A DNA stretch of 32,000 nucleotides. Source: Crocosphaera sp. Its GTDB lineage: Bacteria > Cyanobacteriota > Cyanobacteriia > Cyanobacteriales > Microcystaceae. The DNA is taken from the NCBI RefSeq assembly GCF_030064895.1, contig NZ_JASJEB010000104.1, positions 1,745 to 33,744 on the forward strand. Direction: 5' to 3'. This document shows, in pieces, positions 2,244-20,106 of this stretch. The position numbers and the translations under genes were made by a program. Numbering within the stretch: position 1 is the stretch's first letter; each line of letters opens with the position of its first letter. The notes under the pieces were generated by a model. That model worked only from the letters and a program-made list of their open reading frames with translations, made no database searches and was not told the origin of the DNA.

Positions 2244-2257
2244 GACAAAATTTGTAG

Positions 2258-2368: not shown

Positions 2369-2974
2369 TTGGAATCTCAACATAAAGAATCTTCTCTCTA
2401 TGGTGTAACAGATGGCAAAGCAGTGGGAACTTATTTAGAACAAAAATTCAAAGCCTATTTACAAGAAAAGTATGATTTTGTGGCAGGAAGTTCTGCAAGT
2501 GGTATTGATTTTCCTGATTTATTGGTTGATATGAAAGTAACCAGTATTAAGCAACCACAGTCATCTTGTCCTTATAAGTCTGCTAGACAAAAAATTTTTG
2601 GGCTAGGATATTCACTGATTATTTTTGTTTACAATAAAATTGATAATAATAGTGAACAAGTTACACAATTAAATATTCTACATACTATCTATGTGGATGC
2701 AGAAAGAACAGCAGATTTTCAAATGACTAGAGGTATCAATAACATCATCGAGAATGAAGGGAATGAAGATGATATTATTGCTTTTATGTTAGATCGGAAT
2801 TTGCCTGTGGATGAAATTGAAGCAGCAAACTTAGCTCAAGAAGTTATTAATAATCCTCCTAAACAGGGTTTCTTGACTATCTCTAATGCGTTACAATGGC
2901 GGTTACAATATAGAAGATTTATTTCTCTTGCTGGACAAGAAGAGGGTTTGATAGACATTTATCGAACGAATTAA
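2369..2974 (+). CDS. Type II restriction endonuclease candidate with MutH/Sau3AI-like PD-(D/E)xK core; possibly N-terminally disrupted
   Basis: DGKAVGTYLEQKF...SGIDFPDLLVDMKVTS has the same D-x6-(D/E)-x-K spacing as E. coli MutH (DFAALGVELKT). The only start is TTG. The stop lies 2 nt before the MTase ATG, indicating an operon. An in-frame ATG at 2315 is separated from this ORF by a TAA at 2363-2365. Very AT-rich. Confidence 0.55.
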   Translation: MESQHKESSLYGVTDGKAVGTYLEQKFKAYLQEKYDFVAGSSASGIDFPDLLVDMKVTSIKQPQSSCPYKSARQKIFGLGYSLIIFVYNKIDNNSEQVTQLNILHTIYVDAERTADFQMTRGINNIIENEGNEDDIIAFMLDRNLPVDEIEAANLAQEVINNPPKQGFLTISNALQWRLQYRRFISLAGQEEGLIDIYRTN

Positions 2975-2976
2975 TA

Positions 2977-4404
2977 ATGAAGAAAAAATCTAACAATAAA
3001 ATTGAATATGGAGACTTCCAAACTCCGTTGACTTTAACAGATAAAATTTGTCAAAAGCTAGTAGAAATAAAAGTATTGCCTGATCTTATTATTGAGCCAA
3101 CTTGCGGTATTGGGAACTTTGTAAAATCTTCTAATATGTATTTTAAAGACTTTAAAAAAATCATAGGAATTGATATCAATATAAACTATATAGAACAATT
3201 GAAAAACAACCAAAATAAAAACAATAATAAGGTTACAGTTATTCATGATGATTTTTTTGATTTTGAGTTAAGTCAATTAATAAAAAAAAGAGATGATAAT
3301 ATTTTAATTCTTGGTAATTTCCCTTGGGTAACTAATTCACAACTAGGAAGAATAAAAGGATTAAATTTACCCGAAAAAAATAATTTTCAGCATAATAAGG
3401 GACTAGACGCAATTACAGGGAAAAGTAATTTTGATATATCAGAATGGATGTTAATTAAATGTGTGAATTTTTTACAAAATTATCAGGGTTATCTAGCTAT
3501 GCTTTGTAAAACATCAGTTGCTAGAAAAATAGTTAATTATTTATATAAACAAAATTGTCATCTGTCTTATTGTGCAACTTATGGAATAGATAGCAAAAAA
3601 TATTTTAATGCAACCGTTGAAGCTTGTTTATTATTTTGTCAATTTAAACCTGAAACAAAAAATTATACTTGTGATGTTTTTGAAGATTTATATACATCAA
3701 AGTACAACACTATCAGTTATATTAATAATCGTCTAATTAGAGATAGTAAAACATTTAAACAATTTAGTTATCTTTATACAAATAAACCCACAATTAAATG
3801 GCGTTCTGGTGTTAAACATGATTGCTCAAAAATCATGGAATTTGAGAAAGTAGGAGATTTTTTAATCAATGGTTTAGGAAAAAAAGTAAAATTAGAAGAT
3901 GATTATATTTATCCATTATTGAAAGGTTCAAATGTTTTCAATCAAGATAAAAATAGAACAAAAAAATATGTGTTGATAACTCAAAAATACATTGGAGAAG
4001 ATACTAATAATATAAGAAAATATGCACCAAAAACCTGGAACTATTTACAATCTCATGCTAGTTACTTGGATAAACGTGCAAGTCGAATTTATAAAAATAA
4101 TCCTCAATTTTCTATTTTTGGTGTTGGTGAATATAGTTTTTATCCTTGGAAAATTGCCATTTGTGGTTTATATAAAAAATTAGAATTTAGACTATTTAAT
4201 TTAATAGATAATAAACCTATTATGTTTGATGATACTGTTTATTTTCTTAGCTTTGAAGAAGAAGAAAAGGCTAGACAATTTTTTGATATATTAACCTCTA
4301 CTGAAGTAATTAGCTTTTACTCATCGTTAATTTTTTGGGATGAAAAACGTCCTATCAAAGCAAGTATTTTAAATTGTCTTGATTGGAAAAATGTTTTTAA
4401 ATAA
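2977..4404 (+). CDS. Gamma-class N6-adenine DNA methyltransferase (TaqI/Eco57I-like layout)
   Basis: Motif I IIEPTCGIGNFV (EPxCGxGxF) precedes a motif IV-like LILGNFPWV (NPPW with the first Pro replaced by Phe). A long C-terminal region is the presumed target-recognition domain. Hand counts of sample lines (3181, 3541) give 20-25% G+C. Confidence 0.75.
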   Translation: MKKKSNNKIEYGDFQTPLTLTDKICQKLVEIKVLPDLIIEPTCGIGNFVKSSNMYFKDFKKIIGIDININYIEQLKNNQNKNNNKVTVIHDDFFDFELSQLIKKRDDNILILGNFPWVTNSQLGRIKGLNLPEKNNFQHNKGLDAITGKSNFDISEWMLIKCVNFLQNYQGYLAMLCKTSVARKIVNYLYKQNCHLSYCATYGIDSKKYFNATVEACLLFCQFKPETKNYTCDVFEDLYTSKYNTISYINNRLIRDSKTFKQFSYLYTNKPTIKWRSGVKHDCSKIMEFEKVGDFLINGLGKKVKLEDDYIYPLLKGSNVFNQDKNRTKKYVLITQKYIGEDTNNIRKYAPKTWNYLQSHASYLDKRASRIYKNNPQFSIFGVGEYSFYPWKIAICGLYKKLEFRLFNLIDNKPIMFDDTVYFLSFEEEEKARQFFDILTSTEVISFYSSLIFWDEKRPIKASILNCLDWKNVFK

Positions 4405-4423
4405 TGGAAATTATTAAAACTGA

Positions 4424-4753
4424 TTACGAAAAATTATCGTCATTACGAACTCGTCCAGGAGTAAATTTACCAGAGAAACTTAAATCAGAATCTCTGACTA
4501 TTTTACGGACTTTATTTTTCCGTGATTCCCCTAATTCTTTCCTGTTATTTTCACAGTGAACTTTCTCCACTTCTAGCAAAAATTCAATATCGTTGATAGC
4601 TTTGTTTAAGTCTTCTTGTAGTTTATGTCTATTAGCAATTGTTTTACCAATCAAACCAGCAGTTAACGCAGCAATTAATGTATTGATAATAGAGAATATT
4701 CCAGAAATTAAAGCTTTTTGAATATCAATATTAGATAGGTCTAAATAAGTCAT
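4424..4753 (-). CDS. Hypothetical small membrane-anchored protein (one N-terminal TM helix, charged helical C-terminus)
   Basis: 109-codon ORF, convergent with the MTase across a 19-bp gap. ALISGIFSIINTLIAALTAGLIG is a predicted TM segment, followed by a Lys/Glu/Arg-rich region. No family recognised. Confidence 0.4.
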   Translation of the reverse strand: MTYLDLSNIDIQKALISGIFSIINTLIAALTAGLIGKTIANRHKLQEDLNKAINDIEFLLEVEKVHCENNRKELGESRKNKVRKIVRDSDLSFSGKFTPGRVRNDDNFS

Positions 4754-4840
4754 AGGTGTTAGTTATATAAACTGTTTTATATTATCATATTTTATATTTT
4801 AAATTTAAAAAAAGGGGCAGTTTTACACCTTTCAACTATA

Positions 4841-6163
4841 CTAAAGAATCTTAACTTTTAAGCCATCACTAGGACGAGGACTAGGAATAGTTATCATCTC
4901 TAAGTTTTGGTCGGGTAATAGTTCCCAATGACAGTTACGAACCAAGAGACTAGCAAAAATTTTCATTTCTAATCTAGCAAATTCTTTGCCTAAACATTCT
5001 CTTAAACCTCCCCCAAAAGGAACATAAGCAAAACTTTTTTGTTTATCTGCCATATTTTCAGGAGAAAAGCGTTCAGGATCAAAGGTTTGATAATTAGGAA
5101 AAGTGTCTTTTTCTTGATGGGTTTGGGCGATTTGATATTGTACTGTCCAATCTTTAGGAATACGATAACCTTCAAATTCAAACTCTTGAATGACCTTTCT
5201 AAATGCGCCACCAACTGGAGGGATTAACCTTAAAACCTCTTTTAATACCTGTTCTAAATAGGTCATTTCTTTTAATTTTTCTGAAGTTATATTTTCAGTA
5301 ATATTCAAATTTTCTTGTTCCTTTCTTACTTTTTCTAAAATATCAGGATGTTGCGCCATTAATAAGCTAAAAGAAGAAATTGCAGAGGTTAATGTTTCGT
5401 GACCAGCAAATAGAAGTAATAATATTTGATCTTTTAGTTCTTCTAGAGTAAGACTATTTCCTTCCTCATCTTTTGCCTCTAATAAAATACCAAGTGCATC
5501 ATTTTGATGTTTGGGTTGTTGTTGTCTATCAACGATAATTGTTTCGAGTTCTTGTAACATTTTCTCACGACATTTTAACGCTTTACCAAAACTTGTCCAA
5601 GGTAAATCAATCGCTAAACTAAATAGTCCTTGACTCCAGGTTTCAAAATAACTTGCTAAATTTGTTTGAGAAGCATTATCGAAACTAATTAATAAACTAC
5701 AAGCAACATCAAAGGTATAGTCTCTTAATTCTGGATACCAGGTTAACTCTTTAGTTTGTAACCATCTGTTTATATATTGTTGGGTAATTTCGGTCATTTT
5801 CGGAATATAACTATTTAAAGCCCTGGGTTGAAAAGCTTGGGCTAATAATTTCCGTCTGGAAGTATGAAAATTACCATCTTTAATAACTAAAGATAATTCT
5901 CCTAAAAGAATTCTGGTACTTTTTGGCCAGCTTGAAACAACATATTTATTTTCATTACGGAATAAAAATTGATTAGCATCTGCACCAATCATGATAACAG
6001 CATCATTCCCAAAGATATTGGTTTTATAAACTTGACCATATTTTTTTAGTTTCTTCTTACCAAAATCAGGATCAAATAAAAAACTAAGAGTTTCACCTAT
6101 CAAGGGTAGTCCTCTATCTCCAGGGGGTAAAGATAAAGATTTTTTACTGTCTAATTGTGTCAT
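4841..6163 (-). CDS. Cytochrome P450, CYP120-like
   Basis: Heme-thiolate loop FGGGLRECLG (FxxGxRxCxG), I-helix AGHETLTS and ExxR (EVLR). N-terminal PPGDRGLPLIGETLSFL resembles Synechocystis CYP120A1. ATG at 6163 is preferred because the track start at 6226 would run through the ndhF1 terminator hairpin. Confidence 0.9.
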   Translation of the reverse strand: MTQLDSKKSLSLPPGDRGLPLIGETLSFLFDPDFGKKKLKKYGQVYKTNIFGNDAVIMIGADANQFLFRNENKYVVSSWPKSTRILLGELSLVIKDGNFHTSRRKLLAQAFQPRALNSYIPKMTEITQQYINRWLQTKELTWYPELRDYTFDVACSLLISFDNASQTNLASYFETWSQGLFSLAIDLPWTSFGKALKCREKMLQELETIIVDRQQQPKHQNDALGILLEAKDEEGNSLTLEELKDQILLLLFAGHETLTSAISSFSLLMAQHPDILEKVRKEQENLNITENITSEKLKEMTYLEQVLKEVLRLIPPVGGAFRKVIQEFEFEGYRIPKDWTVQYQIAQTHQEKDTFPNYQTFDPERFSPENMADKQKSFAYVPFGGGLRECLGKEFARLEMKIFASLLVRNCHWELLPDQNLEMITIPSPRPSDGLKVKIL

Positions 6164-6209
6164 TTTTGATTGATTAAAATTAAAGATTGATCTATTAATT
6201 TTTAATTTT

Positions 6210-6236
6210 AAAATAAAAAGGGGCAATATTGCCCCT
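6210..6236 (-). terminator. Intrinsic terminator of ndhF1
   Basis: Perfect palindrome GGGGCAAT/ATTGCCCC (6220-6235). On the minus strand it is followed by TTTTTATTTT. It lies 25 nt downstream of the ndhF1 stop. Confidence 0.8.
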
Positions 6237-6260
6237 TCAAACCAACTTTAAAAAAATGAG

Positions 6261-8309
6261 TTAAACTACACTAAAAACAATCACAAACCCTAACACTGCC
6301 CCAAATACAATTAAGGCATAAAATTGGGCGCGACCATTTTCTAGATACTTCAAACCTTCCCCACTCACTAAAGTAGCTAAACCAGTCAAATTAACCGCGC
6401 CATCAATAACACGATAATCCACTTCCATAATTTGACGGGCTAAGCGACGACATCCCATAACAAATACATTATTGTAAACATCATCGAAATACCACTTATT
6501 GAGGGAAAATTGATACAACGCAGGAAACTTATCCGCGATCGCTTTGGGATCAATTTTGTGTTGTAAATACATCAAAGAAGCGATGGTAATACCAATTAAA
6601 GCAATACCAACAGAATTTCCGGCCATGATACCAAACTCCGTCCAGTCGAAGTGAGAAACCTCTTCTATAACCTCTCCTGGGGCGTATATAAAGCCCTCAA
6701 AAGTATTATCCCAAGGTTTACCCAATAAACCGATCAACGTGGAAGGAACGGCTAAAATAAGCAGGGGTAAGGTCATAGTCAAAGGAGACTCATGGGGATA
6801 TTCGCTATGGCCATGATCATCGTGACCATGATCTTCGCTATCATGATCCAATTCCTTCACATCCATTGCCCCAGGACCAAACACAGGAGCAACTGCTGCG
6901 GATAACTCGGCCCGAATGTCCATATCATTGCCTCGGAAGTCTCCTTCAAAGGTCATAAAATACATCCGGAACATATAAAAAGCGGTTAAACCGGCAGTTA
7001 ACCAACCCACTAACCATAAACTGGGGTTCGCTTCAAAGGCTAAGCCTAAAATCTCGTCTTTTGACCAGAAACCAGCAAAAGGAGGAATTCCACAAATAGC
7101 TAAAGTTCCGATCAAAAACGCTAAGGAAGTCAGGGGCATATATTTTCTCAGTCCCCCCATTAAACGCATATCCTGGGCCAAGACCGGATCATGTCCAACA
7201 ACCTCTTCCATGCCATGAATAACAGACCCAGAACAAAGGAATAACATCGCTTTAAAATAAGCATGGGTCATCAGGTGAAACAGTCCAGCAGTATAAGCAC
7301 CGATACCCATAGCCATCACCATGTAACCCAGTTGGGAAATCGTCGAGTAAGCTAAACCCTTCTTAATATCGTTTTGAGTTAAAGCGATGGTTGCACCTAA
7401 AAAGGAGGTGACGGCCCCAGTCCAAGCAATAGTTGTCATGGCTACAGGGATGTTCTCAAACACAGGATACATCCGCGCTACCAAGAATACACCTGCTGCT
7501 ACCATGGTCGCAGCGTGAATCAAGGCAGAAATAGGTGTGGGGCCTTCCATTGCGTCTGGTAGCCAAACATGAAGGGGAAACTGTGCCGATTTAGCCACAG
7601 GTCCAAGGAAGACTAAGACAGCGAATAATGCTGCTAATGCCGGGGCGATCATTCCTGAAGAAACTAACCCTTCTAAACGTTCCCCCATCAGATCAAATTC
7701 AAAGGTTCCGGTTGCCCAGTAAATACCTAACATTCCCAGAAGCAGGCCGAAGTCACCGACACGGTTGGTGACAAAGGCTTTTTGGCAAGCATCGGCCGCT
7801 GCTTTGCGATCGAACCAGAAACCGATGAGAAGATAGGAACACATCCCCACCAGTTCCCAGAAGATATATACCTGCACTAAATTAGGACTGATTACTAAGC
7901 CCAACATGGACGCGCTAAAGATACTTAAGTAAGCATAAAAGCGGACATAACTTGGATCGTGGGCCATGTAACCATCGGTATAAACCATCACCAAAAAGGC
8001 CACTGTGGTGACAATGACACACATCAAGGCACTAATATGATCCAGGGTGTAACCCATTTGTAGAGTAAAATTGCCGGCTGCTGCCCATTCGATCATCTTA
8101 GTGTATTCTTCATGACCTTGGATTTGACTCCACAACAGGGCAAAAGATAACACCATCGACGCGCCTATCAGGGAAATAATAAATACTGCGTTGACTTGTC
8201 TGAGGCGGTTGGTTGCTTCATTAAAGGAAATTAAGCCTAAGCCCACCAGCATCGCCCCCAACAAGGGCAACACTGGAATAAGCCAGGCGTATTGATAAAG
8301 AGGTTCCAT
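6261..8309 (-). CDS. ndhF1: NAD(P)H-quinone oxidoreductase (NDH-1) subunit 5, NdhF1 type
   Basis: 682-aa polytopic membrane protein. The N-terminus MEPLYQYAWLIPVLPLLGA and the length are typical of NdhF1 rather than the shorter NdhF3/F4 paralogs. HIP1 at 6535-6542. A sample line (7561) is 48% G+C. Confidence 0.9.
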   Translation of the reverse strand: MEPLYQYAWLIPVLPLLGAMLVGLGLISFNEATNRLRQVNAVFIISLIGASMVLSFALLWSQIQGHEEYTKMIEWAAAGNFTLQMGYTLDHISALMCVIVTTVAFLVMVYTDGYMAHDPSYVRFYAYLSIFSASMLGLVISPNLVQVYIFWELVGMCSYLLIGFWFDRKAAADACQKAFVTNRVGDFGLLLGMLGIYWATGTFEFDLMGERLEGLVSSGMIAPALAALFAVLVFLGPVAKSAQFPLHVWLPDAMEGPTPISALIHAATMVAAGVFLVARMYPVFENIPVAMTTIAWTGAVTSFLGATIALTQNDIKKGLAYSTISQLGYMVMAMGIGAYTAGLFHLMTHAYFKAMLFLCSGSVIHGMEEVVGHDPVLAQDMRLMGGLRKYMPLTSLAFLIGTLAICGIPPFAGFWSKDEILGLAFEANPSLWLVGWLTAGLTAFYMFRMYFMTFEGDFRGNDMDIRAELSAAVAPVFGPGAMDVKELDHDSEDHGHDDHGHSEYPHESPLTMTLPLLILAVPSTLIGLLGKPWDNTFEGFIYAPGEVIEEVSHFDWTEFGIMAGNSVGIALIGITIASLMYLQHKIDPKAIADKFPALYQFSLNKWYFDDVYNNVFVMGCRRLARQIMEVDYRVIDGAVNLTGLATLVSGEGLKYLENGRAQFYALIVFGAVLGFVIVFSVV

Positions 8310-8593
8310 AGAGTAATGCCTAAGTTATTTGTTTTGCTACATAAAACCGATACAATGCGCCATCATAAGACACATTAAAGTTTACTTCCTGCTTCACCCA
8401 GAACCGTCGCCGGTAACGGAGTTCAATACGCGCCCACAGGTGGCGCGTCCAGTCCCCCTCTGTCCACAGGCTAACACGGTATAGCCTACCGGTTGATTAG
8501 CTAACACTTTAGCTCCACCTTAGTGGATAGATAACGCTAACCCTTCAGTTATAGACTTTTTTTAAGGAATTCTTCAACGAATCAAGGCACAGA

Positions 8594-8631
8594 CCGTCTC
8601 CCCACACTCCCCCTCTCCCCCTCTCCCCACC
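8594..8631 (-). repeat. Degenerate GGGGAGA-type G-tract array (G-rich on the minus strand)
   Basis: The minus strand reads GGTGGGGAGAGGGGGAGAGGGGGAGTGTGGGGAGACGG. It shares the GGGGAGA core and the 10-mer GGGGAGACGG with the array at 13915-14014, in inverted orientation. Confidence 0.9.
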
Positions 8632-8928
8632 AAACTCCAAAGATAATTTTTCTATAAAAAGGCAATAAGATTTTCTAATTTTTATCGACTAATTCGAGAT
8701 ATTTACTAAACAATTATACTGAGAATTTCAGTAATTTTACCCTTGGATTTTTTATTAAAGATAAAGAACTTTTTTGTTTCTTTATACTACTCCTAATCTA
8801 TTTACAAAATCTTTAAAAAATGTTGATTATATAAAGAAATAAATTCTCTGTAAATACTTGCAAAATTAGAAAAAAATGATAAGCTGTTATGTGTAAATCC
8901 CCAGAATTATGTTTAACTATTTATTTCT

Positions 8929-10122
8929 ATGAAACTCACTAACCTTCTGCCACTTATCAGAAAAAATAACTATCATAATGGTGCTACGTTGATAGAACTA
9001 TTATTAGGAAGTAGTTTAAGTTCCTTTGTTGTTGGTCTAGCGGGATGGGGTTTAGTACACTCTACAACCCTTGATCAAAAAGCATCAGCAAAAGGTGATA
9101 TTCAATATAATTCTAACCGCGCGTTAGAATTTATTGCAGACGAAGTTAAACTAGGTACCAAAATTGAATCTGATGCAGTTGGAGCTTTATCAGAAGCACC
9201 TGACTTTACTCTTCCTAATGGAGCAAAACCCATTCTTGTTGTACAAGTACAAGGTTTGGAGCAACCGGTTATTTACTATACAAAACAAGCAGAAGGTATT
9301 TGGGATGGTCCTTATATGATGGAGCGATGGGGTCCTGATTTTAATGCAGAGGGAGAATATTATCCAACGCAAATTAATGACCCTAAAACTTGGAAAGCTC
9401 ATGTTGTAATGGATAGAATTGATGACACACCAGAAACTCCAAATTGTCCCAGAGATTGGCGAGCAAGTAATAGTAATTCAACTCGAGGATTTAATGCTTG
9501 TGTTAATCCCAATGAAAAACTGGTAAAACTGAACATAGCAACTACTGTGGATAACAAAACTTGGCAGAATAATGTTAATTATCAAGTTGAAACTATGGCT
9601 TTTGCTAGAAGTAGTATGTTTACTATTATAAGTAAAAAGTTAATTCCTAATACACCTTCTGATATCACGTTTGAAGTTTTAGGAGGTGAGATTACTTGTG
9701 GTACAGGAGGGGGAAATATTCCTGTTCAAACGAATCTTTATATTAATGAAAATAAGCAAACTTGGAACACGAATTCTGCTTTAACTTTACCCAATCAAGC
9801 AGCCGGAACTACTTTTGATGTGGAATCAATTTCAGGGGATGGCTCAATTTGTAATGGTTTAGGAATGACTGTGTCTACCACTGATGAGAATACATCACAG
9901 CTTCAGGTTTTGGTTAATGGTGACGATGTCCCTAATATTACCCCTTTTGCTAATCAAAATACTATTGATTTCTTTTTACAACAGTATGTAGAAAATGGCA
10001 AAATAAAAATTGCTGAAAACCAGGCTATCTATTTATTTGAGTTAGGAGTAACTAATCAAAACTCACCCGCTTTTGATTTACAAGATAATGTTGTTTTGGC
10101 AACGGTTGAACCGTCTAATTAA
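8929..10122 (+). CDS. Prepilin-type N-terminal cleavage/methylation domain protein (large, atypical pilin or pseudopilin-like)
   Basis: MKLTNLLPLIRKNNYHNG|ATLIELLLGSSLSSFVVGLAGWGLV shows a basic leader, Gly at -1, Glu at +5 and a hydrophobic helix, the class III signal. The 397-aa length is far above major pilins. Cys pair CPRDWRASNSNSTRGFNAC. Flanked by about 620 and 750 bp of AT-rich non-coding DNA. Confidence 0.65.
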   Translation: MKLTNLLPLIRKNNYHNGATLIELLLGSSLSSFVVGLAGWGLVHSTTLDQKASAKGDIQYNSNRALEFIADEVKLGTKIESDAVGALSEAPDFTLPNGAKPILVVQVQGLEQPVIYYTKQAEGIWDGPYMMERWGPDFNAEGEYYPTQINDPKTWKAHVVMDRIDDTPETPNCPRDWRASNSNSTRGFNACVNPNEKLVKLNIATTVDNKTWQNNVNYQVETMAFARSSMFTIISKKLIPNTPSDITFEVLGGEITCGTGGGNIPVQTNLYINENKQTWNTNSALTLPNQAAGTTFDVESISGDGSICNGLGMTVSTTDENTSQLQVLVNGDDVPNITPFANQNTIDFFLQQYVENGKIKIAENQAIYLFELGVTNQNSPAFDLQDNVVLATVEPSN

Positions 10123-10876
10123 CTTTTCTCTTGTTTATTAGAGTCTTATCCTCATCAAATTTTCTTGACAGCAAAAATCTCTTCTACACTCAATTTTAAC
10201 TCAGAAAAAATCAACGATTAGATTCTCTGTTTTTCTCTAAAAAATCTTTTTTCGTAGTGATCGCCTTCTAAAGATACCGTCATTAACGATGGAGTTTAAA
10301 AATCAACAACGGGTTAAGGTGGATTATTTCGGTGTAGCAATATTATTTTTGTTGGGAGTTGTACAATAATTTAATTTTTACTTGAAACACATTTTTGTAT
10401 TTTTGTCAAGTTATAAGCAATCACACTTAGCTATTATTTAGTACAAAAGTTCAAAATAAGTACTGAAAATAGTAATTTATCCCTTAAACAGGAAGCTACA
10501 ATAACGAAAGAATCATAGTTATAGATGCTTTTCTGAAAATTACACAGAAAGGCTACAGATTTTTATTCTTGTCCATCATACCACAAAGGCTTGACTTCGT
10601 TACTTATTAAGAATAATTTTCATTAGTTGTCAAGAGCAGTAAAATACGAATCTTTTATATTTTAAAATTTAATAAAATAAAAGATAATAAAAACTTATAT
10701 AATGAGGCGATTTATGATCATTTCAGCAAAATAGTTCACTTGTCCCTTCCATATTTAGTGTCTTATGCCTAATATTGTAGATCCAAACGCTACATATAGA
10801 GCATGGTCAGTATCAATCTTAAGTTTTGGCCTTGCGTTATGAAGTTTGTCGGAATTCAATTGTCGGGAGAAGGAAA

Positions 10877-13800
10877 ATGAACCATCAACAAGAATGGTTA
10901 AATAGTTGCGTTGATCAGCAAGTAATAGAACTAAATGTAAGGAGCTTAGAAGGGATGTCCCCTTGCGAGCATTTATTATACTCAGATGAGCTTCCCCGAC
11001 GGAACGATGGCAGACTAAGTAACTATATTTTACAGCGTTATCAACACACAGAATTAGGGGGTTGGTGGTGTTCAGGAATTGATGTGATGACGGGAGATAA
11101 GGACCTTTGGGGATGTTTTAAACCGGAGCAACCACGCTTAAGTTATGACCAGGGTAAACCCATCAAGTATGAACATCCACCCCAAACCACTACAGGTATC
11201 TTTGCTTTAAGAGTCCCCTTACATCTTTGGAAGACTATTGCGCAACAGTATGACATTGAGTTTACCCCGGACATGGTTGATTACAGGCAACCAGACGGAG
11301 GCTTTTGGCAATGGGTGATAGCTCATCCTTCTATTCCCCTTTGTATTACAGAAGGAGCCAAAAAAGCAGGAGCTTTATTAAGTGCCGGATATGTAGCGAT
11401 CGCTCTTCCTGGGATTAATAATGGTTATCGTACCCCCAAAGATAAACAAGGAAATCGTATCGGTAAATCTTATTTAATTCCTCAGTTACAGAAGTTAAGT
11501 TCTGGGAGAAGAGAAATTTATCTAACTTTTGATCAAGACAGTAAACCCAATACTATCAAAGCGGTTAATCATGCCATTAGAAAGTTAGGTTATTTGTTAA
11601 GCCAAACAGGATCTAAAGTTAAAGTGATACATTGGCAACCAGAGCAAGGTAAAGGGGTGGATGATCTGTTGTTTCATCAAGGCAAAAAAGTCTTTGATGA
11701 CTGTTATCAAAAATCCTTACCATTAGAGTTATGGAAAGCAAGAGAGTTTACCCAATTAACCCATGGAGTAAGTGTAGAGGTTAATAGTCGTTATCTTCCT
11801 AATTTAGTTATTCCTGATACGGCCAAATTAATTGGTATTAAGTCTGCTATTGGTACAGGGAAGACCGAAGCATTAGCAAAAATTGTTCGACAAGCGATCT
11901 GCAATAAGCAAAAAGTTTTAGTTATCGGCCATCGCATTAAATTAGTTGAACAGTTATGTCAACGTTTTGGACTTCCTTATATTACAGATATCAAGGATAA
12001 TTCTTTTGGTAAATCATTAGGGTATGGATTATGTATTGACTCTTTACACGAAAATTCTCAAGCTAATTTTAATCCTGAAGACTGGCAAGATGCGTTAGTT
12101 ATTATTGATGAAATAGAACAAGTTATTTGGCACGCTTTAAACTCCCAAACCTGTAGCAATAAACGTGTTGATATTTTGAAATGTTTTAAGCAACTTATGC
12201 AAACTATTGTAGGCAGTCAAGGTAATATTTTTGTTGCTGATGCTGACTTAAGTGATGTTTCCTTGGACTACTTAATAGCTTTATCAGGAATTGATATAAA
12301 ACCGTTTATTATTCAAAATTATTGGAAACCAGCCCAAAAAGAAACATGGTCAGGTTATCATTATCCAGAAACAACCCCTAAACGTTTTCTTAAAGATTTA
12401 GTCGAACATATTCGAGAAGGAGGTAAACCATTTATTTGTTTATCTGCTCAAAAACTTACTAGTAAATGGGGAACTCAAACCTTAGAATCTTATTTCAAAA
12501 AACAATTTCCTGATGCTAAAATTTTACGCATTGATTCCCAATCATTAACCGATCCCAATCATCCTGCTTATCAATGTATTACCCAACTTGATGAGGTATT
12601 AATTAACTATGATATTGTTTTAAATAGTCCCGCTATTGAAACAGGAATTAGTATTGATATAAAAGAACATTTTAGTTCAGTTTGGTGTCTTGCTCAAGGA
12701 GTACAAACTCCCACATCTGTAATTCAATCTTTAGGAAGAATAAGAGATAATATACCCCGTTATCTTTGGTTAGCTTCCTATGGATTTAATAAAGTAGGAA
12801 ATGGAGCAACATCTATTCCTATTTTATTAACATCAGGTCATCGTTTAACCAACTTAAATATTAGATTATTACAACAATCTGATTTAGAATCATTAGACGA
12901 CTTAGATACAGGTTTTCAAGCAGAATCTTTATTATGTTGGGGAAAAATAGCTGTAAGAGTTAATGCACAAATGATTCATTATCGAGAAACAATAATCAGA
13001 ATTATTCAATCCAAAAATCATCGAATAGATATATCTAAAAGAAAGAAAAAAAATAAGACAAAAACAGTAAATAAAAGCAAAACAAAATATCCTAAGGCAA
13101 ACAATAAACTCATAGAAACTATTGAAGAAGTAAGACGCAAAAATTATCAATTAGAATGTGAACAAATTGCTCAATCTCCAGACTTAAACGAGACAGAATA
13201 TCAAAAAATAAAAAAATCTTTAATAAAAACCAATAAAGAAAGAAGAAAAATAAAAAAATATGATTTAAAACGTCGTTATTGTCTTCCAGTTACTCCTAAA
13301 TTAGTCGCTTTAGATAATGAAGGTTGGTATCAAAAAATTAGACTACATTACTTCTTAACAAAAGGCCGCAATTATTTAGCAGATAGAGATGCAATGAATG
13401 CTAAACAATTAATTGAAAAAGGACAAGGAAGTATCTTTTTACCCGATTTTAATAATAGTCAATTTGGTGCAATTATTGGCACAATGGAAGTATTAGGACT
13501 TCCTGTGTTATTAAAAGATATTAATCGTAAGTTAATCAATATTGATTCAGATTTAATAAAGATGGCAACCTTGGCTATCAATAATAGACAAGACATAAAA
13601 ACAATTATGGGAATTGGTATTGCCAAAAATGCTAGTCCAATTACTATTATTAGACGACTTTTAGATAAAATAGGATATGGTTTAACCTGTTGTGGAACCA
13701 AAACAATAAATAAGAAAAGAGTACGACTTTATCAAGTCGTTACTCCCAATGATGAACGAGAACAAGTCTTTCAACAATGGCTATTAAAAGACCAAAATAC

Positions 13801-13915
13801 TCCAGGAACTTCTGAACCTTGGTTTGAAGCTTATCTCTTGCCAAAATCTCAAAATGAAGATATCTCAAATAGTAGTAAACATATTCAGTTGAGTCTAAAT
13901 TTTGCTACTGAATAG
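10877..13915 (+). CDS. Toprim (DUF3854-like) + SF2 helicase replication protein, CyRepA-like
   Basis: ATG at 10877 is preceded by GGGAGAAGGAAA; the track start TTG 10826 is less likely. Toprim residues: CITEGAKKAG (Glu) and LTFDQDSK (DxD). Walker A AIGTGKTEA, Walker B LVIIDEIEQV, motif V-like SPAIETGISID and motif VI QSLGRIRD. Lys-rich tract SKRKKKNKTKTVNKSKTK. One HIP1 at 11396-11403. Confidence 0.75.
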   Translation: MNHQQEWLNSCVDQQVIELNVRSLEGMSPCEHLLYSDELPRRNDGRLSNYILQRYQHTELGGWWCSGIDVMTGDKDLWGCFKPEQPRLSYDQGKPIKYEHPPQTTTGIFALRVPLHLWKTIAQQYDIEFTPDMVDYRQPDGGFWQWVIAHPSIPLCITEGAKKAGALLSAGYVAIALPGINNGYRTPKDKQGNRIGKSYLIPQLQKLSSGRREIYLTFDQDSKPNTIKAVNHAIRKLGYLLSQTGSKVKVIHWQPEQGKGVDDLLFHQGKKVFDDCYQKSLPLELWKAREFTQLTHGVSVEVNSRYLPNLVIPDTAKLIGIKSAIGTGKTEALAKIVRQAICNKQKVLVIGHRIKLVEQLCQRFGLPYITDIKDNSFGKSLGYGLCIDSLHENSQANFNPEDWQDALVIIDEIEQVIWHALNSQTCSNKRVDILKCFKQLMQTIVGSQGNIFVADADLSDVSLDYLIALSGIDIKPFIIQNYWKPAQKETWSGYHYPETTPKRFLKDLVEHIREGGKPFICLSAQKLTSKWGTQTLESYFKKQFPDAKILRIDSQSLTDPNHPAYQCITQLDEVLINYDIVLNSPAIETGISIDIKEHFSSVWCLAQGVQTPTSVIQSLGRIRDNIPRYLWLASYGFNKVGNGATSIPILLTSGHRLTNLNIRLLQQSDLESLDDLDTGFQAESLLCWGKIAVRVNAQMIHYRETIIRIIQSKNHRIDISKRKKKNKTKTVNKSKTKYPKANNKLIETIEEVRRKNYQLECEQIAQSPDLNETEYQKIKKSLIKTNKERRKIKKYDLKRRYCLPVTPKLVALDNEGWYQKIRLHYFLTKGRNYLADRDAMNAKQLIEKGQGSIFLPDFNNSQFGAIIGTMEVLGLPVLLKDINRKLINIDSDLIKMATLAINNRQDIKTIMGIGIAKNASPITIIRRLLDKIGYGLTCCGTKTINKKRVRLYQVVTPNDEREQVFQQWLLKDQNTPGTSEPWFEAYLLPKSQNEDISNSSKHIQLSLNFATE

Positions 13916-14014
13916 GAGATGGGGAGATGGGGAGATGGGGAGACGGGGAGATGGGGAGATGGGGAGATGGGGAGACGGGGAGATGGGGAGATGGGGAGAT
14001 GGGGAGACGGGGAG
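13915..14014 (+). repeat. Tandem octamer array GGGGAGAY, about 12.5 units, with 32-nt super-periodicity
   Basis: Read directly. Units start at 13921 in the order T,T,C,T,T,T,C,T,T,T,C. The array begins at the last base of the replication-gene stop codon and lies between convergent genes. Confidence 0.97.
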
Positions 14015-14078
14015 TCAATCCATTCCTCAACTATTAATAAACATAAAAATTCTACATTTTTATGACTTAATTCTAAAT

Positions 14079-14897
14079 TTATTCGATCCTTTCTTCAATT
14101 TCCGCCGGTTTTTTCATAACCAGGGGCTTTTTCTCCAACTCTGGCAAAGCTAATACCTCCCGTTGGTGTTGTTTAACAGGTGTAGGCATTAACATGGGTA
14201 AAGGTTCTTGATCTTCGTCTTCGCGCCAGTAACTCGCCACAGGTAACGTATGTTCTAAATCTTCTAAGAGTCTGGGAATGATCATCATGGCGTGTAATTC
14301 GCCAATTTTCTCCGCTTCGTGCATTCCTGCTTCAATGGCTACGGCCACATTGGCAACTGTTCCGCGAATAATAGCCGTACAGAGTCCATCACCAATAATC
14401 TCGTAAGAAGCCAACTGCACATCAGCCGACTTTAACATCGCATCAGCCGCACCAACCATAGCAGGAAAGCCTCTGGTTTCGATCAGTCCGATAGAACGAT
14501 TACTGAGACGACTATAACCCTGTTGTTGTTGGGCCATTTCTACTAAATGACTCCCAATAGGAAAAACTGCCTCTAGATTAGGCATAGGACGAGGAATGAC
14601 CAACTTAGAAATTAATTGACCGAACTTTTCCGCCGTTTTTGCCCCTTCTTCCACCGCTAAACGAACATTAGCCACCTTACCCCGTACAATAGCGGTACAG
14701 TGTCCACTACCGATTTTTTCGTATCCCACTAAGGTCACATCTGCTGATTTGAGCATCATATCGGCAGTTCCGACAATGGCAGGGAAACTATGGGTTGAAA
14801 TAAGGCCAAGTGCGCTATCACTGGGTAAGTGAGATGATTTCATGCTAGATTGTGATTGTGAGGCGTAACGGTGGTTAGAATTAGCAAGACTTGTCAT
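14079..14897 (-). CDS. ccmO: Carboxysome shell protein CcmO (tandem BMC domains)
   Basis: Two BMC domains: LGLISTHSFPAIVGTADMMLKSADVTLVGYEKIGSGHCTAIVRG and IGLIETRGFPAMVGAADAMLKSADVQLASYEIIGDGLCTAIIRG. The 272-aa length is typical of CcmO. Confidence 0.85.
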   Translation of the reverse strand: MTSLANSNHRYASQSQSSMKSSHLPSDSALGLISTHSFPAIVGTADMMLKSADVTLVGYEKIGSGHCTAIVRGKVANVRLAVEEGAKTAEKFGQLISKLVIPRPMPNLEAVFPIGSHLVEMAQQQQGYSRLSNRSIGLIETRGFPAMVGAADAMLKSADVQLASYEIIGDGLCTAIIRGTVANVAVAIEAGMHEAEKIGELHAMMIIPRLLEDLEHTLPVASYWREDEDQEPLPMLMPTPVKQHQREVLALPELEKKPLVMKKPAEIEERIE

Positions 14898-15330
14898 TTA
14901 ATCCTGTCCGTATTGGTAGGTGGTGAAGGGTAATATCAAATTTTGTTTATATATTTCTATCTTAGTTTATTTTTTTTGATATACAGTGCCGATAGGCACG
15001 CTTATTTTTTCATATAAAACTGATAATAGTTGATTTTAGGTTAACTCATCAACTCAATGGTGTTAGAGGGGTGATGGGACTTTGACATTAAAGCATCCTT
15101 AAAATTTTGCTAAAAGAGAACGATAACTTAGCTGAACCGATAAAATAAGGAAGGTTAGTCGTTAATAACGATATTCACTCGCTCAGGGGATGAACCCCTT
15201 AAAGTTGAATTTACCCATCAATGTCAGCAAAATTGCCAAAATTATCCTGACATCATCGATCGTTTCGATGGGTCTTGTTACTTAACATTACCTTTGAATC
15301 GCAAAAAGTCCTTCGAGGTTGCTACTAATT

Positions 15331-18300
15331 ATGGTTGGTGAAGCGTCACAGTCCACAGTTAAAGAGATTAACGAGATTAACGAGATTAACATTTTTTCAA
15401 CATCCGATCTATTCTTACGTCAGCGTCTAGAATTAGTGGAAAGTTTATGGGAATCAGTATTAAAAGCTGAATGTGGTCTAGAATTAGTAGACTTGTTAAA
15501 AAAATTACGAAAAATCTCCTCACCAGAAGGACAAGTTACCAATCAACCCAAAACCTCCATCAATGAACTCATAGAAGAGTTAGAACTTAACGAAGCTATC
15601 CGCGCAACTAGAGCATTTGCCCTATATTTTCAGTTAATTAATATTGTTGAACAACATTACGAACAAAGAGATCAACAACTGAACCGACGAGCTACCTATC
15701 AAGCATCAGAAAAAGCTAGAGAAAATAATAAAATAGGAGAAAAACAAAGTAATGGCTCATTTGGAGCCGACTTATTAGAAAAAGCCCTAGTTGGAGAAAC
15801 AAAAAGTCAAGAAAAAGGCGGAACCTTTCACTGGTTATTCCCCCAATTAAAACGCTTAAACGTCCCCCCCCAACAAATTCAACGATTATTAGAACAACTC
15901 GATATACGCCTCGTTTTTACCGCTCACCCCACCGAAATTGTTCGTCATACCATCAGACTCAAACAAAGAAGAATAGCCACCTTGCTGCGGCGTTTAGACC
16001 AAGCAGAAGAAGCATTTAGGGGCATGGGTCTAAATAGTTCCTGGGAAGCAGAATCAATCACGGAACAACTCAACGAAGAAATACGCCTCTGGTGGCGTAC
16101 TGATGAACTGCATCAGTTTAAACCCAGTGTTCTCGACGAAGTAGACTACACCCTACACTATTTTGATGAAGTGTTATGTAATGCCCTACCCCAACTCTCT
16201 CAAAGACTGCAACAGGCCCTAAACGCAAATTTTCCCTGGATTAAACCCCCCCATAATACCTTCTGTCGCTTTGGGTCATGGGTAGGAGGCGATCGCGACG
16301 GAAACCCCTTCGTTACAACAGACATCACCTGGCGAACCGCTTGTTATCAACGCAACTTAATTCTAGAAAAATATTTAGCAGCCATCGAAGATTTAACAGA
16401 AATTTTAAGCTCATCTCTGCACTGGAGTAACGTTTCTCAGGACCTCTTAGACTCCCTAGAACGCGATCGCGTGGCCATGCCTGAAATATACGATCAACTA
16501 GCTATCCGCTATCGCCAAGAACCCTATCGCCTTAAATTAGCTTATGTTCAAAAACGACTAGAAAATACACGCGATCGCAACAATCATCTGGCCAAACCTG
16601 AACAACAACAAATTTTAAGCGAAGAAACCCCCCAAAATATCTACCAGTCCGGGGCAGAATTTGAAGCAGAATTACAACTAATTAAACGTAATTTAGAAGA
16701 AACGGGCTTAAAATGCCAAGCATTAGAAAATCTGCTTTTTCAAGCGCAAATGTTCGGCTTTACCCTAACACAATTAGATTTTCGCCAAGAATCTTCCCGT
16801 CACTCAGAAACCATTCAAACCATTGCCAATTATTTAAACATCTTACCCCGTCCCTACGGAGAACTATCCGAAGCAGAAAAAGTCAATTGGTTAGTAGGGG
16901 AACTACAAACCCGTCGTCCCTTGATACCTATGGAAATGCCCTTCGATGAGAAAACCATCGAAACCATCGAAACCATGCGGATGTTGCGCTACTTACAACA
17001 AGAATTTGGCATAGAAATTTGTCAAACCTATATCATTAGTATGACCAACGATGTCAGCGATGTCCTAGAAGTATTATTATTAGCCAAAGAAGCCGGACTA
17101 TACGACCCCGGAACCAGTACCACCACCATTCGCATCGTTCCCCTCTTTGAAACCGTAGACGACTTAAAACGGGCCCCTGAGATCATGGAAGCCTTGTTTA
17201 AATTACCCTTATATCGTGCTGCTTTAGCTGGAGGGTACGACTACTTAGACGAAGACAAAAAAGAACAATTACCTCCCCCTGAACTGCAACCGGCAAACCT
17301 ACAAGAGATCATGGTAGGTTACTCCGACAGTAACAAAGACTCAGGTTTCCTCAGCAGTAACTGGGAAATACATAAAGCCCAAAAATCCCTACAAAAAGTT
17401 GCAGAACCCTACAATTTAGCCTTAAGACTGTTTCATGGTCGTGGTGGTTCCGTAGGACGAGGAGGAGGGCCAGCTTACGCTGCTATTTTAGCCCAACCCA
17501 CCGGCACCATTAACGGACGCATCAAAATCACCGAACAAGGGGAAGTCTTAGCCTCTAAATACTCCCTACCGGAACTCGCTTTATATAACCTAGAAACGGC
17601 AACTACGGCGGTGATCCAAGGAAGTTTACTGGGCAGTGGGTTCGATGATATTGACCCTTGGAACGAGATCATGGAAGAATTGGCCAGTAGTGCCAGAAAA
17701 GCCTATCGTAGTTTGATTTATGAACACGCGGACTTCTTAGACTTCTTCCTCTCTGTCACCCCTATCCCCGAAATTAGCCAATTACAGATTAGTTCTCGCC
17801 CGGCCAGACGGAAAAGTGGTAAAAAAGATTTAAGTACCTTACGGGCTATTCCTTGGGTGTTTAGTTGGACCCAAAGTCGTTTTCTGTTGCCAGCTTGGTA
17901 TGGTGTCGGAACCGCGTTAGAAAACTTTTTAGAACAGGAACCCGAGGCAAATTTGAAATTGTTTAAATATTTTTACTTGAAATGGCCATTCTTTAAAATG
18001 GTTATTTCTAAAGTAGAAATGACCCTTTCTAAAGTAGATTTACAAATTGCTCACCACTACGTTAAAGAACTTTCTAACCCCGAAGATATAGAACGATTTG
18101 AAAAGGTATTTGAGCGTATTTCCCAAGAATATTATCGTACCTGTCAGATGATTTTAAACATCACTGGAAACACCAAATTATTAGATGGAGATGTCAGTTT
18201 ACAGCGATCGGTACAGTTAAGAAATGGAACTATTGTTCCCCTTGGTTTCTTACAAGTATCTCTCTTGAAACGATTACGTCAATATACTCGTCAAGCAGAG

Positions 18301-18399
18301 TCAGGAGTTATCCACTTCCGTTATTCTAAAGAAGAATTATTACGGGGTGCATTACTAACCATTAATGGTATTGCTGCAGGAATGCGGAATACTGGTTGA
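15331..18399 (+). CDS. ppc: Phosphoenolpyruvate carboxylase
   Basis: Signatures [18 protein letters not shown] and [14 protein letters not shown], with C-terminal [15 protein letters not shown] at 15331 preferred over TTG at 15319. Three HIP1 sites. Confidence 0.95.
15364..15390 (+). repeat. In-frame 9-bp tandem repeat GAGATTAAC x3 (EIN-EIN-EIN) in the ppc N-terminal region
   Basis: Read directly from the sequence. Confidence 0.95.
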
Positions 18400-18425
18400 T
18401 ACTTTGAATTATTATTAATTGACCT

Positions 18426-19490
18426 ATGGACAATCGTTTTAAAGTCATTGAAATTGTTGATCTGATCATCAGACTATTTCTGATTGGATTATTATTAGCT
18501 TGGTGTTTTCTACTCATTCGTCCTTTTATCGGGATTGTCCTCTGGGGAATTATTTTGGCTATCGCTATTTTTCCCCTATTTTTATGGTTAAAAAACCTTT
18601 TCGGGGGACGAGGAAAATTAGCAGGGGTTATCCTAACTTTATTGGGGGTAGGAGTGATTGTTGGACCGGTTAGTATTATTGCTACTATTTTCGTCAATAA
18701 TGCTCAAACCTTTGCAGATAGTCTTGCTTCTGGTAGTTTAGCTGTTCCTCCTCCCCCCGAAGGAATCGAAACATGGCCAGTGATTGGAGAAAGAATTAAT
18801 AGGATTTGGGAATTAGCATCGGTTAATTTGGCCTCAGTCTTAGGTAAATTTAAACCCCAGTTAGAAGCATTAACAAAAAACTTATTATTTTTGGCCGCTA
18901 ATATTGGGGTGGTGTTATTGAAGTTTATTATTTCGATTATTATTGCCGGAATTTTAGTTATGAATGCAGAGAAATTAAATTCTCGTATTAGACAAGTTTT
19001 TCTGCGAATAACCCCCAAACAAGGTCAAGAATTTTTACAATTAGCTACTGGTACTATTCGGGGGGTAACACGGGGTATTATTGGGGTTTCTGCGTTGCAA
19101 AGTCTTCTTATTGGTATTGGTTTATTACTAGGAGGAATTCCTTTTGCTGGTTTATTAACCCTATTATGTTTAGTTTTGACTATTATTCAAATTGGACCGG
19201 GTTTAGTGGTTTTTCCAGCAATTATTTTTGCTTGGTCAACTATGGGAAAGCTTACTGCATTATTGTTTACACTGTGGATGGTTCCTTGTACCTTGGTTGA
19301 TAATATCCTTAAACCTATATTAATGTCCAAAGGTTTACCTGTTCCCACTATTGTCATCTTAATTGGTGTTTTAGGAGGAACTTTAGTCCACGGAATTTTA
19401 GGGTTATTTATTGGTCCAGTTGTTCTTAGTTTAGGGTATGAATTATTAGTTGCTTGGGTTAATCAAGATTTACAACCCAATACCGATTAG
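18426..19490 (+). CDS. AI-2E family (PerM/UPF0118-like) transporter
   Basis: 354-aa polytopic protein. The C-terminal ILKPILMSKGLPVPTIVILIGVLGGTLVHGILGLFIGPVVLSLGYELLVAW pattern is typical of the family. It starts 27 nt after the ppc stop. Confidence 0.7.
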   Translation: MDNRFKVIEIVDLIIRLFLIGLLLAWCFLLIRPFIGIVLWGIILAIAIFPLFLWLKNLFGGRGKLAGVILTLLGVGVIVGPVSIIATIFVNNAQTFADSLASGSLAVPPPPEGIETWPVIGERINRIWELASVNLASVLGKFKPQLEALTKNLLFLAANIGVVLLKFIISIIIAGILVMNAEKLNSRIRQVFLRITPKQGQEFLQLATGTIRGVTRGIIGVSALQSLLIGIGLLLGGIPFAGLLTLLCLVLTIIQIGPGLVVFPAIIFAWSTMGKLTALLFTLWMVPCTLVDNILKPILMSKGLPVPTIVILIGVLGGTLVHGILGLFIGPVVLSLGYELLVAWVNQDLQPNTD

Positions 19491-19532
19491 TGTTGAGAAT
19501 GAGTAATTAATAATTATTTCATTAATATAATA

Positions 19533-19587
19533 ACTCAATCTTTGTATAGACATTTAGATGTGCTGTGTCTATACATTAAGATTGAGT
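19533..19587. terminator. Long imperfect palindrome (20-bp stem with a 2-nt bulge, 13-nt loop) between convergent genes
   Basis: ACTCAATCTTTGTATAGACA (19533-19552) pairs with TGTCTATACA-TT-AAGATTGAGT (19566-19587). Confidence 0.5.
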
Positions 19588-19685
19588 CTGGATAAATACC
19601 AATATTAAAGAATGCAAAATTAGTTTTTCCAGATAAGGTTAGGGAATCATCAACTAGAAGATAGGTATAGTTAAATTAGCCAAAA

Positions 19686-19940: not shown

Positions 19941-20106
19941 GATACAAGATCCTTTCTTGATGAACTGCTCTTAATTATGGACTAAAAATGTACTTAATGT
20001 CTAGATACAAATATCCCAATTTAAAGGGATAAAAATCCAATAAAATGCTGCAAACTTTATTCTAAGCAGATTTAAGGTTTTTGTTAATTTTTTTATCTTA
20101 ATTATC

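Follow-up and report, generated by a model that had tools for sequence, protein, structure and literature searches.

The DNA analysed here (the window) is a 32,000-nt stretch of a Crocosphaera sp. contig (assembly GCF_030064895.1, NZ_JASJEB010000104.1, positions 1,745 to 33,744). Between two of its housekeeping genes, ndhF1 and ccmO, lies a segment (8594-14014) that holds a pilin-like gene and a gene of the CyRepA1 family of replication proteins, with a G-rich tandem repeat array at each end. An earlier note on this sequence took the two facing arrays for the limits of a mobile or episomal segment, and proposed an integrated plasmid remnant, an inversion-prone cassette or a chromosomal auxiliary replication module. 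The segment is probably better described as three independent features lying side by side: microsatellites that arose in situ, a pilin-like gene in a variable slot, and an old chromosomal branch of CyRepA with its leader. The features of the locus are the following.

6261 to 8309, minus strand: ndhF1, the left flank (NF005626 equivalog, 1281 bits).
8594 to 8631, minus strand: left G-rich array of about 4 degenerate 8-9-nt units (C-rich on the plus strand), in the divergent spacer between ndhF1 and the pilin-like gene.
8929 to 10122, plus strand: minor pseudopilin-like gene, 397 amino acids (aa), with the prepilin-type N-terminus NGATLIELLLG; clade-specific, in a variable slot.
10123 to 10384, no strand: AT-rich spacer, lineage-specific, coinciding with the pilin/CyRepA mosaic breakpoint.
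10385 to 10876, plus strand: conserved non-coding leader of about 490 nt with three GTCAAG/CTTGAC motifs.
10712 to 10811, plus strand: ultraconserved core of about 100 nt, with ATATTTAGTGT, a -10-like TAnnAT hexamer and then the near-palindrome ACGCTACATATAGAG.
10877 to 13915, plus strand: CyRepA1-family gene (primase-like plus superfamily 2, SF2, helicase), 1012 aa, of the chromosomal clade.
13915 to 14014, plus strand: right array, 12.5 units of GGGGAGAY, in the convergent spacer between CyRepA and ccmO.
14079 to 14897, minus strand: ccmO, the right flank (NF053792 equivalog, 374 bits).

As a description of the locus the earlier note holds up well. The flanking genes it named (ndhF1, ccmO and ppc) are all identified by NCBIfam equivalog models. 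The arrays do enclose exactly the prepilin-like open reading frame (ORF) and the Toprim-SF2 helicase, together with about 1 kb of AT-rich spacer (297 bp and 754 bp). Integrase, transposase and tRNA genes are absent, as it said: a scan of the segment for transfer RNA and transfer-messenger RNA found none, Rfam gave no match there at gathering thresholds, and no segment ORF of at least 25 aa resembles a transposase, integrase or recombinase. The GC content of the segment is not anomalous relative to the rest of the window. GC skew over the 32 kb is dominated by gene orientation and is uninformative.

The plasmid-type replication gene was also correctly recognised. The protein scores 544.9 bits on the NCBIfam model NF042913 (CyRepA1), whose cutoff is 200, and its residues 333-955 correspond to positions 2-594 of the 595 in the model. 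Pfam matches are DUF3854 (PF12965, Toprim-like; 1.9e-54), ResIII (7.7e-6) and, weakly, Herpes_ori_bp. The founder of the family is Slr7037 of plasmid pSYSA, on which replication of that plasmid depends (Kaltenbrunner et al. 2023, PMC9978351; Sakamaki et al. 2023, PMC10079941); slr7037 and its upstream region make up a 3.6-kb replicon of Synechocystis PCC 6803 pSYSA (PMC9978351). The window protein is 40% identical to Slr7037 and has the same architecture, with an N-terminal DUF3854/Toprim-like part, an SF2 helicase and a long C-terminal region. Unlike the pSYSA gene, it is chromosomal and belongs to a separate monophyletic clade, so that the family trait "plasmid-encoded" given for NF042913 does not apply in this context of an ndhF1, ccmO and ppc chromosome.

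Relatives at 58-93% identity are located on chromosomes, namely those of ATCC 51142 (4.93 Mb), spheroid bodies (2.5-3.1 Mb), PCC 7424 and Stanieria NIES-3757. The hits on these named chromosomes are 58-81% identical, and the orthologue-bearing chromosomes span 2.5-5.9 Mb. All 284 of the 284 plasmid records with a homologue fall below 60% identity (best: 50.8%). Stanieria NIES-3757 possesses both kinds, a chromosomal copy at 59% and a plasmid copy at 42%. Every one of 100 bootstrap replicates of a neighbour-joining tree kept the chromosomal group apart from the plasmid copies, and the order within the group tracks taxonomy. All 17 orthologues compared keep E159 (in TEGAKKAG), D219 and D221 (FDQD), the Walker A residues G328-K329-T330 and the Walker B pair D411-E412 unchanged. 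The ratio of nonsynonymous to synonymous substitution rates (dN/dS) is 0.15-0.20, with a synonymous rate (dS) of 0.55-0.70, similar to that of the adjacent ccmO and ppc. Purifying selection and the invariant motifs mark the gene as maintained and not as a relic. CyRepA of the window is thus a member of a known family, within an old, vertically inherited, chromosome-specific subclade that has its own conserved control region. No description of this chromosomal clade was found in the literature searched, and an exact-sequence look-up of the window CyRepA (ATG-start version) and pilin proteins found neither on record.

Gene order around CyRepA differs between relatives. The homologous loci are labelled here with L-numbers (L006 is Crocosphaera sp. 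Alani8 and L003 is ATCC 51142). Alani8 has the order menD-like, pilin-like, CyRepA, ccmO, ppc, AI-2E transporter, with no arrays. In L133 the pilin-like gene and CyRepA also adjoin each other without arrays, and the right flank is different. The order in ATCC 51142 is dnaN, menD, CyRepA, acyltransferase, with the pilin homologue (cce_3142) elsewhere, and L008, L131 and the spheroid body each show yet other CyRepA neighbours. The CyRepA–ccmO–ppc adjacency is common to the window, L005, L213 and Alani8. That of ndhF1 and the pilin-like gene is shared with L212, and L213 has a homologous ndhF1-side spacer beside its pilin-like gene. With such differing neighbours CyRepA appears as a resident gene around which the chromosome rearranges. 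The earlier note had suggested looking for relatives in which ndhF1 directly adjoins ccmO; no such empty site was found, as every relative examined carries the CyRepA gene.

The window itself is a mosaic. In sliding-window comparisons its identity to L212 is 93-99% over ndhF1 and the pilin gene and 80-88% over CyRepA, while its identity to L213 is 73-94% over the pilin gene and 92-99% over CyRepA. The CyRepA–ccmO–ppc part is closest to L213 and L005. The switch between L212-like and L213-like sequence is located in the pilin/CyRepA spacer (10000-10750). Within it, the stretch 10123-10384 is unalignable to L212 and L213 (44-48% identity, with flanks 83-99% identical) and has only partial matches, to L134 and L003. 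Since the two enclosed genes have different nearest relatives and a breakpoint lies between them, they do not form one unit.

These comparisons bear on the proposal that the segment stems from a CyRepA1 plasmid, whole or partial, whose insertion between ndhF1 and ccmO left the arrays behind as decayed terminal repeats. The proposal draws on a gene family first defined on the plasmids pSYSA and pAQ1 (PMC9978351, PMC10079941), on the ability of pSYSA and pANL to integrate into chromosomes (PMC9978351, PMC7198777), and on inverted arrays with a core in common that enclose exactly two non-housekeeping genes. It is contradicted by the fully supported (100%) chromosomal clade of nearest relatives, by purifying selection with a dS like that of the flanking genes, by the different histories of the enclosed genes, by the unremarkable GC content, by Alani8, where CyRepA, ccmO and ppc adjoin one another with no array present, and by the presence of the gene in every relative examined, with no empty site. 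No target-site duplication, extended terminal inverted repeat, recombinase or tRNA was seen either. A plasmid remnant is therefore very improbable. By the usual marks of a transposon, insertion sequence or miniature inverted-repeat transposable element, the segment shows no terminal inverted repeats, target-site duplication, transposase or empty site; by those of a genomic island or integrated plasmid, it shows no patchy distribution, foreign relatives or integrase/tRNA border.

The arrays were found to read exactly as first given, in sequence and position. GGTGGGGAGAGGGGGAGAGGGGGAGTGTGGGGAGACGG is the minus-strand reading of 8594-8631 and comprises about 3.9 degenerate units according to Tandem Repeats Finder (TRF). 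The right array, for which 12 GGGGAGAY units had been counted, has 12.5 by the same program; it begins within the stop codon of CyRepA and doubles as a perfect 32-bp superunit repeated 3.1 times (TRF score 200). The window contains 16 copies of GGGGAGA where 2.84 are expected (16 was reached in 0 of 100 shuffles), and 14 of these 16 copies fall inside the two arrays. A two-unit pattern with at most 2 mismatches gives 14 matches in the window against 0.16 expected, all of them within the arrays. Inverted orientation, the GGGGAGA core and the common 10-mer GGGGAGACGG are seen in both arrays as claimed. The 10-mer is the longest exact match between the segment ends, where no similarity was found beyond the low-complexity arrays, and the sequences just outside the arrays (GGCACAGA and TCAATCCA) do not form a direct repeat, so that a target-site duplication is absent.

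Other candidates at these sites were rejected. A search for longer inverted repeats at the two ends yielded nothing but AT-rich pairs due to chance, for example I2, at 76% and in the wrong geometry. A CRISPR-like array (clustered regularly interspaced short palindromic repeats) was dismissed because there are no spacers, and a coding repeat because the ORFs over the array are artefacts of the repeat. Further 7-9-nt tandem repeats exist elsewhere in the window. They include ATAACTG x7.7 at 21767-21822 (gene start or intergenic), CATTATC x3.6 at 25781-25805 and TTAACGAGA x3.6 at 15359-15390, at the 5' end of the ppc ORF; a longer repeat (45 nt, x2.1) lies at 28549-28641 within an 876-aa ORF.

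At the site of the right array the number of units varies from 0 to 12.5. Alani8 has none: TAAGAGACTACAAAA follows the CyRepA stop codon, ccmO is 35 bp away, and the site carries TAAGAGACTAC in place of an array. L005 (protein 93% identical) has about 4 units (37 nt of repeat), L213 (protein 92% identical) has 5 units of the types GGGGAGAT and GGGGAGTTT, and L002, whose flanks are 99.9% identical to the window, has 8.5 units and is exactly 32 bp shorter than the window with its 12.5. The left array is identical in L130, from the same population as the window, whereas the C-rich repeats that L212 and L213 possess at the homologous position are of other kinds (among them CTCCCCAAACTCCCC). L212 also has a third array, (GGGGAGTGT)x3.5, between its second pilin gene and CyRepA. 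L213 has just the proto-repeat GTGGGAAGCATGGAAAG at exactly this site, and the L212 array was therefore caught at birth.

Similar arrays are common in other genomes. One genome per species was scanned for runs of three or more GGGGAGAN units, which gave at least 118 loci (at least 136 arrays). Cyanobacteria account for 86 of the 118 listed loci, as counted from record titles, and single genomes of Symploca, Moorena, Rivularia, Nostoc and Okeania have 3-5 array sites apiece. A CyRepA homologue is encoded at none of the 118 listed loci, and 98 of the 136 listed arrays in other genomes sit outside long open frames. Dispersal is seen both in other cyanobacterial genomes and at three spacers across close relatives. 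The earlier note had named two findings that would speak against its own view, arrays at many unrelated intergenic sites of the genome and the same gene order without arrays; the scan showed such scatter in other cyanobacterial genomes, and the pilin-like–CyRepA–ccmO–ppc order is free of arrays in Alani8. With 0-12.5 units at one site, arrays scattered through cyanobacterial genomes away from any CyRepA gene, and discordant ancestry of the two enclosed genes, the notion of a mobile or episomal segment bounded by the arrays is refuted.

The arrays are in-situ, hypervariable and probably generic cyanobacterial short tandem repeats, and their bracketing of two genes is coincidental. That they face each other and have a core in common is put down to a sequence bias acting on both, and not to their being the two ends of one insertion. 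Each would have originated in place from a short seed and then grown or shrunk through replication slippage. Such slippage would make the unit number vary between near-identical strains and short-read assemblies break at the arrays. Two points weigh against this account. The count for the source genome covers the 32-kb window alone, where both arrays flank the segment, and the 19-mer GGGGAGTGTGGGGAGACGG is common to the left array of the window and the right array of L005, which could reflect sequence exchange between the two sites.

The closest known class of repeats is the short tandemly repeated repetitive sequences (STRR) of cyanobacteria, reportedly described by Mazel et al. in 1990 as heptamers such as CCCCAGT. 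Like these, the present arrays are tandem 7-9-nt repeats with a C4/G4 core, of a type that is mostly intergenic and found at several sites in single cyanobacterial genomes, strongly enriched in cyanobacteria (the 86 of 118 listed loci) and of strain-variable copy number. They differ in that the unit is an octamer or nonamer (GGGGAGAY, GGGGAGTGT, GGGGAGTTT) and not the classical heptamer, and in that the host is a unicellular Crocosphaera and not a heterocystous filament. Such arrays can be used as strain markers and also cause assembly breaks. Facing simple repeats do not amount to a new mobile element, and a false "cassette" annotation is avoided here.

Inverted repeats can in principle mediate inversion, and G-rich, quadruplex-forming repeats are recombinogenic in other systems. 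Recombination between the two arrays might on that account flip the pilin-like–CyRepA block and switch expression or the direction of replication. The failure of one metagenome (ERZ23486753) to assemble the region could be taken as a sign of this: two of its contigs are 100% identical to the window over 1-9130 (L130) and 13928-21049 (L001), and 9130-13928 is missing. The short-read assembly breaks inside the right array (L001) and inside the pilin gene (L130), however, which suggests that the repeat itself and heterogeneity of pilin alleles account for the breaks. In the independent assemblies just one orientation is found, the right junction being the same in the window, L002, L005, L213 and Alani8 and the left junction in the window, L130, L212 and L213. 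The uninterrupted identity of the two arms is limited to the 10-mer, no invertase gene is present nearby, and relatives with the same gene order have absent or minimal arrays. The inversion-prone cassette is therefore also given hardly any weight.

It is improbable, though less so, that the arrays are functional G-quadruplex elements, acting as a bidirectional barrier to transcription or replication forks between CyRepA and ccmO or as an upstream regulator of ndhF1. The predicted stability is very strong: three stacked four-layer G-quadruplexes in the right array (-84.9 vs -20.4 kcal/mol) and one in the left (-34.2 vs -14.2 kcal/mol). No hairpin terminator was found in the convergent CyRepA/ccmO spacer, and several lineages retain G-rich repeats at the same two spacers. 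Set against this are the complete absence of units in Alani8, where the spacer is just 35 bp, with up to 12.5 units at the same site elsewhere, a sequence and period that vary by lineage (GGGGAGAT, GGGGAGTTT, GGGGAGTGT) and the similar arrays at many unrelated sites. Because the arrays are not conserved, any function would be optional.

The region directly upstream of CyRepA is conserved. The leader has a mean column identity of 86% over 7 lineages that differ in their upstream neighbour genes, and its blastn identity of 76-90% is above the conservation of CyRepA synonymous sites (dS 0.55-0.70). It contains no conserved ORF of at least 25 aa. A structured RNA leader was considered and rejected. 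The covariation term of RNAalifold was unfavourable for the leader, with double changes at 6 of 93 pairs, mostly in closely related sequences, and no structure was obtained for a 60-nt core on either strand; the leader is consequently treated as a DNA-level element. As in pSYSA, where the upstream region and the gene form the minimal replicon, a non-coding or regulatory region of several hundred nucleotides lies directly upstream of the gene. Where the cis region of pSYSA type holds ssr7036 and asRNA1, the window has a conserved 490-nt leader without an ssr7036-like small ORF, a supported RNA structure or similarity to PLSDB plasmids.

The core is the most conserved part of the leader. All Crocosphaera-clade loci match it at 88-97% identity, the spheroid body at 77%, and the consensus of the near-palindrome is ACGCTAnATATAG(C/A)G. 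An nhmmer profile recovered the core from 42 upstream regions out of 73 unique ones; every copy is in sense orientation immediately 5' of the gene, and protein identity at these loci goes down to about 54%. The profile did not detect it in plasmid loci, in loci of 44-48% identity or in 118 unrelated cyanobacterial loci. Scans for consensus promoters and terminators gave no enrichment over shuffles. The core is read as a putative promoter/operator or a putative initiator-binding (Rep-binding) DNA site.

The literature leaves open how cyanobacteria, and the endosymbionts descended from them, replicate without DnaA (PMC7198777; bioRxiv 10.64898/2026.03.19.712447). All spheroid bodies lack dnaA (bioRxiv 10.64898/2026.03.19.712447), and cyanobacteria tolerate its loss, sometimes by means of an integrated plasmid origin (PMC7198777). 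In a ΔdnaA strain of Synechococcus elongatus the chromosome is described as replicating from an integrated plasmid (Ohbayashi et al. 2016, as described in PMC7198777). Such integrative suppression resembles the present case in that a plasmid-type initiator is found in a cyanobacterial chromosome, here in a lineage that includes the dnaA-less spheroid bodies. It differs in being a recent laboratory event with a whole plasmid; the CyRepA unit is an ancient, vertically inherited single gene with its leader, and at most a putative origin. Full-length CyRepA orthologues were found in five spheroid-body lineages. The spheroid-body proteins considered are P0025, P0026, P0029, P0032, P0045, P0165 and P0166. 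In the locus of the Rhopalodia gibberula spheroid body (L004, AP018341.1) CyRepA occupies 10001-13036 and the upstream core is recognisable.

A chromosomal replication role of the CyRepA clade is plausible. In the mechanism envisaged, CyRepA would bind the repeated core motifs and thereby autoregulate its promoter, mark a priming site, or both; its primase-like and helicase domains would then start DNA synthesis, and the chromosome would gain an initiation route independent of DnaA and oriC. This would parallel pSYSA, where CyRepA1 works with the region upstream of its gene. A chromosome-only branch with its own cis element, retained in dnaA-less spheroid bodies, makes the clade a concrete and testable candidate for DnaA-less replication, and it is reasonable to regard the subclade as a candidate for DnaA-independent chromosomal initiation. 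The fullest form of the idea is tentative and rather unlikely: that the CyRepA1 clade with its leader and core is a second chromosomal initiator and origin in Crocosphaera, Cyanothece, Gloeothece, Stanieria-type cyanobacteria and diatom endosymbionts, and the sole one where dnaA was lost. If true, an anciently captured plasmid replicon would explain how lineages with this clade tolerate or achieve DnaA-independent replication. The auxiliary replication module of the earlier note is compatible with the CyRepA unit alone; for the bracketed segment as a whole it does not hold.

Several facts speak against an initiator role. Free-living Crocosphaera keep DnaA and a DnaA-box oriC (PMC4674748). Two spheroid-body assemblies (XTZ11403.1 and XTZ12115.1) have only partial ORFs, of 340 and 574 aa, which may be pseudogenes or frameshift errors and, if real pseudogenes, would argue against an essential role in spheroid bodies. 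No named UCYN-A orthologue occurs among the 120 matches listed, many of which are nameless. Alani8 and L008 lack the distal two-thirds of the leader, and leader DNA had no match in PLSDB. A point in favour of a replication role comes from C. subtropica ATCC 51142 (L003, CP000806.1 1,880,727-1,903,864; dnaN at 6389-7570 and CyRepA at 10001-13138 of the locus). There the gene starts at 1,890,727, 3.5 kb from the experimentally supported DnaA-box oriC beside dnaN (1,886,587-1,887,114; PMC4674748), and the DnaA boxes were confirmed; leader and gene together correspond to about 1,890,290-1,893,864. This proximity is seen in ATCC 51142 only, among about 90 CyRepA loci; it was rejected as a general rule and is treated as an anecdote.

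A competing account, somewhat unlikely in its turn, is that chromosomal CyRepA has been domesticated as a primase-helicase that serves some purpose other than initiation, such as priming in replication restart or repair, defence against foreign replicons, or an incompatibility-type exclusion of CyRepA1 plasmids. With DnaA and oriC kept in free-living Crocosphaera (PMC4674748) a second initiator is not obviously needed, and the partial ORFs in two spheroid-body assemblies and a leader that has nothing in common with plasmid origins fit such a role. On the other hand, the gene retains the full domain set and catalytic residues of a family proven in replication, is accompanied by a cis element peculiar to its clade, whose repeated motifs are characteristic of Rep-binding regions, and is kept in reduced endosymbiont genomes without dnaA (bioRxiv 10.64898/2026.03.19.712447).

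The third feature of the segment, the pilin-like gene, is a lineage-specific minor pseudopilin. Its protein has no Pfam match, no NCBIfam model at threshold and a weak match to HpsC. It is 100% identical to MDJ0582301.1 (Crocosphaera sp.). All 44 homologues are from Crocosphaera or Aphanothece; some are annotated as PilW family, PulJ/GspJ family or prepilin-type N-terminal domain proteins, and genomes often have several paralogues. The hydrophobic prepilin N-terminus (G-ATLIELL) and the length of about 400 aa are shared with the minor pseudopilins PilW, GspJ/PulJ and HpsC; unlike those, the gene has no adjacent pilus or secretion genes and is confined to the two genera. The label "orphan pilin-like gene" is therefore apt as to the pseudopilin-like sequence and the absence of pilus-gene neighbours, and the gene is an orphan in that sense only. 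Its dN/dS against Alani8 is 0.27, that is, fast-evolving yet constrained. L212 possesses two tandem paralogues, of which the window retains one type and L213 the other. The slot probably changes as tandem paralogues are gained, lost or exchanged through recombination. Between the two paralogues of L212 (9545-10000) there are also a TAACTCC heptamer array of about 4.5 units and a GC-rich hairpin-like palindrome, GGGGTCAACGGCCGTTGACCCC.

Two further observations concern the left flank. Upstream of ndhF1 on the minus strand, a GC-rich stretch of about 150 nt (8390-8540) is 89-95% conserved in L212 and L213 and has no Rfam match; it may be the 5' untranslated region or the promoter region of ndhF1. 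To the left of ndhF1 (2369-6226) lies a conserved block, found also in L130 and L212, that comprises a cytochrome P450 gene, a gene for a protein with an NspV domain, a methyltransferase-like ORF and an M16 peptidase gene. L212 has only truncated fragments of the first two.

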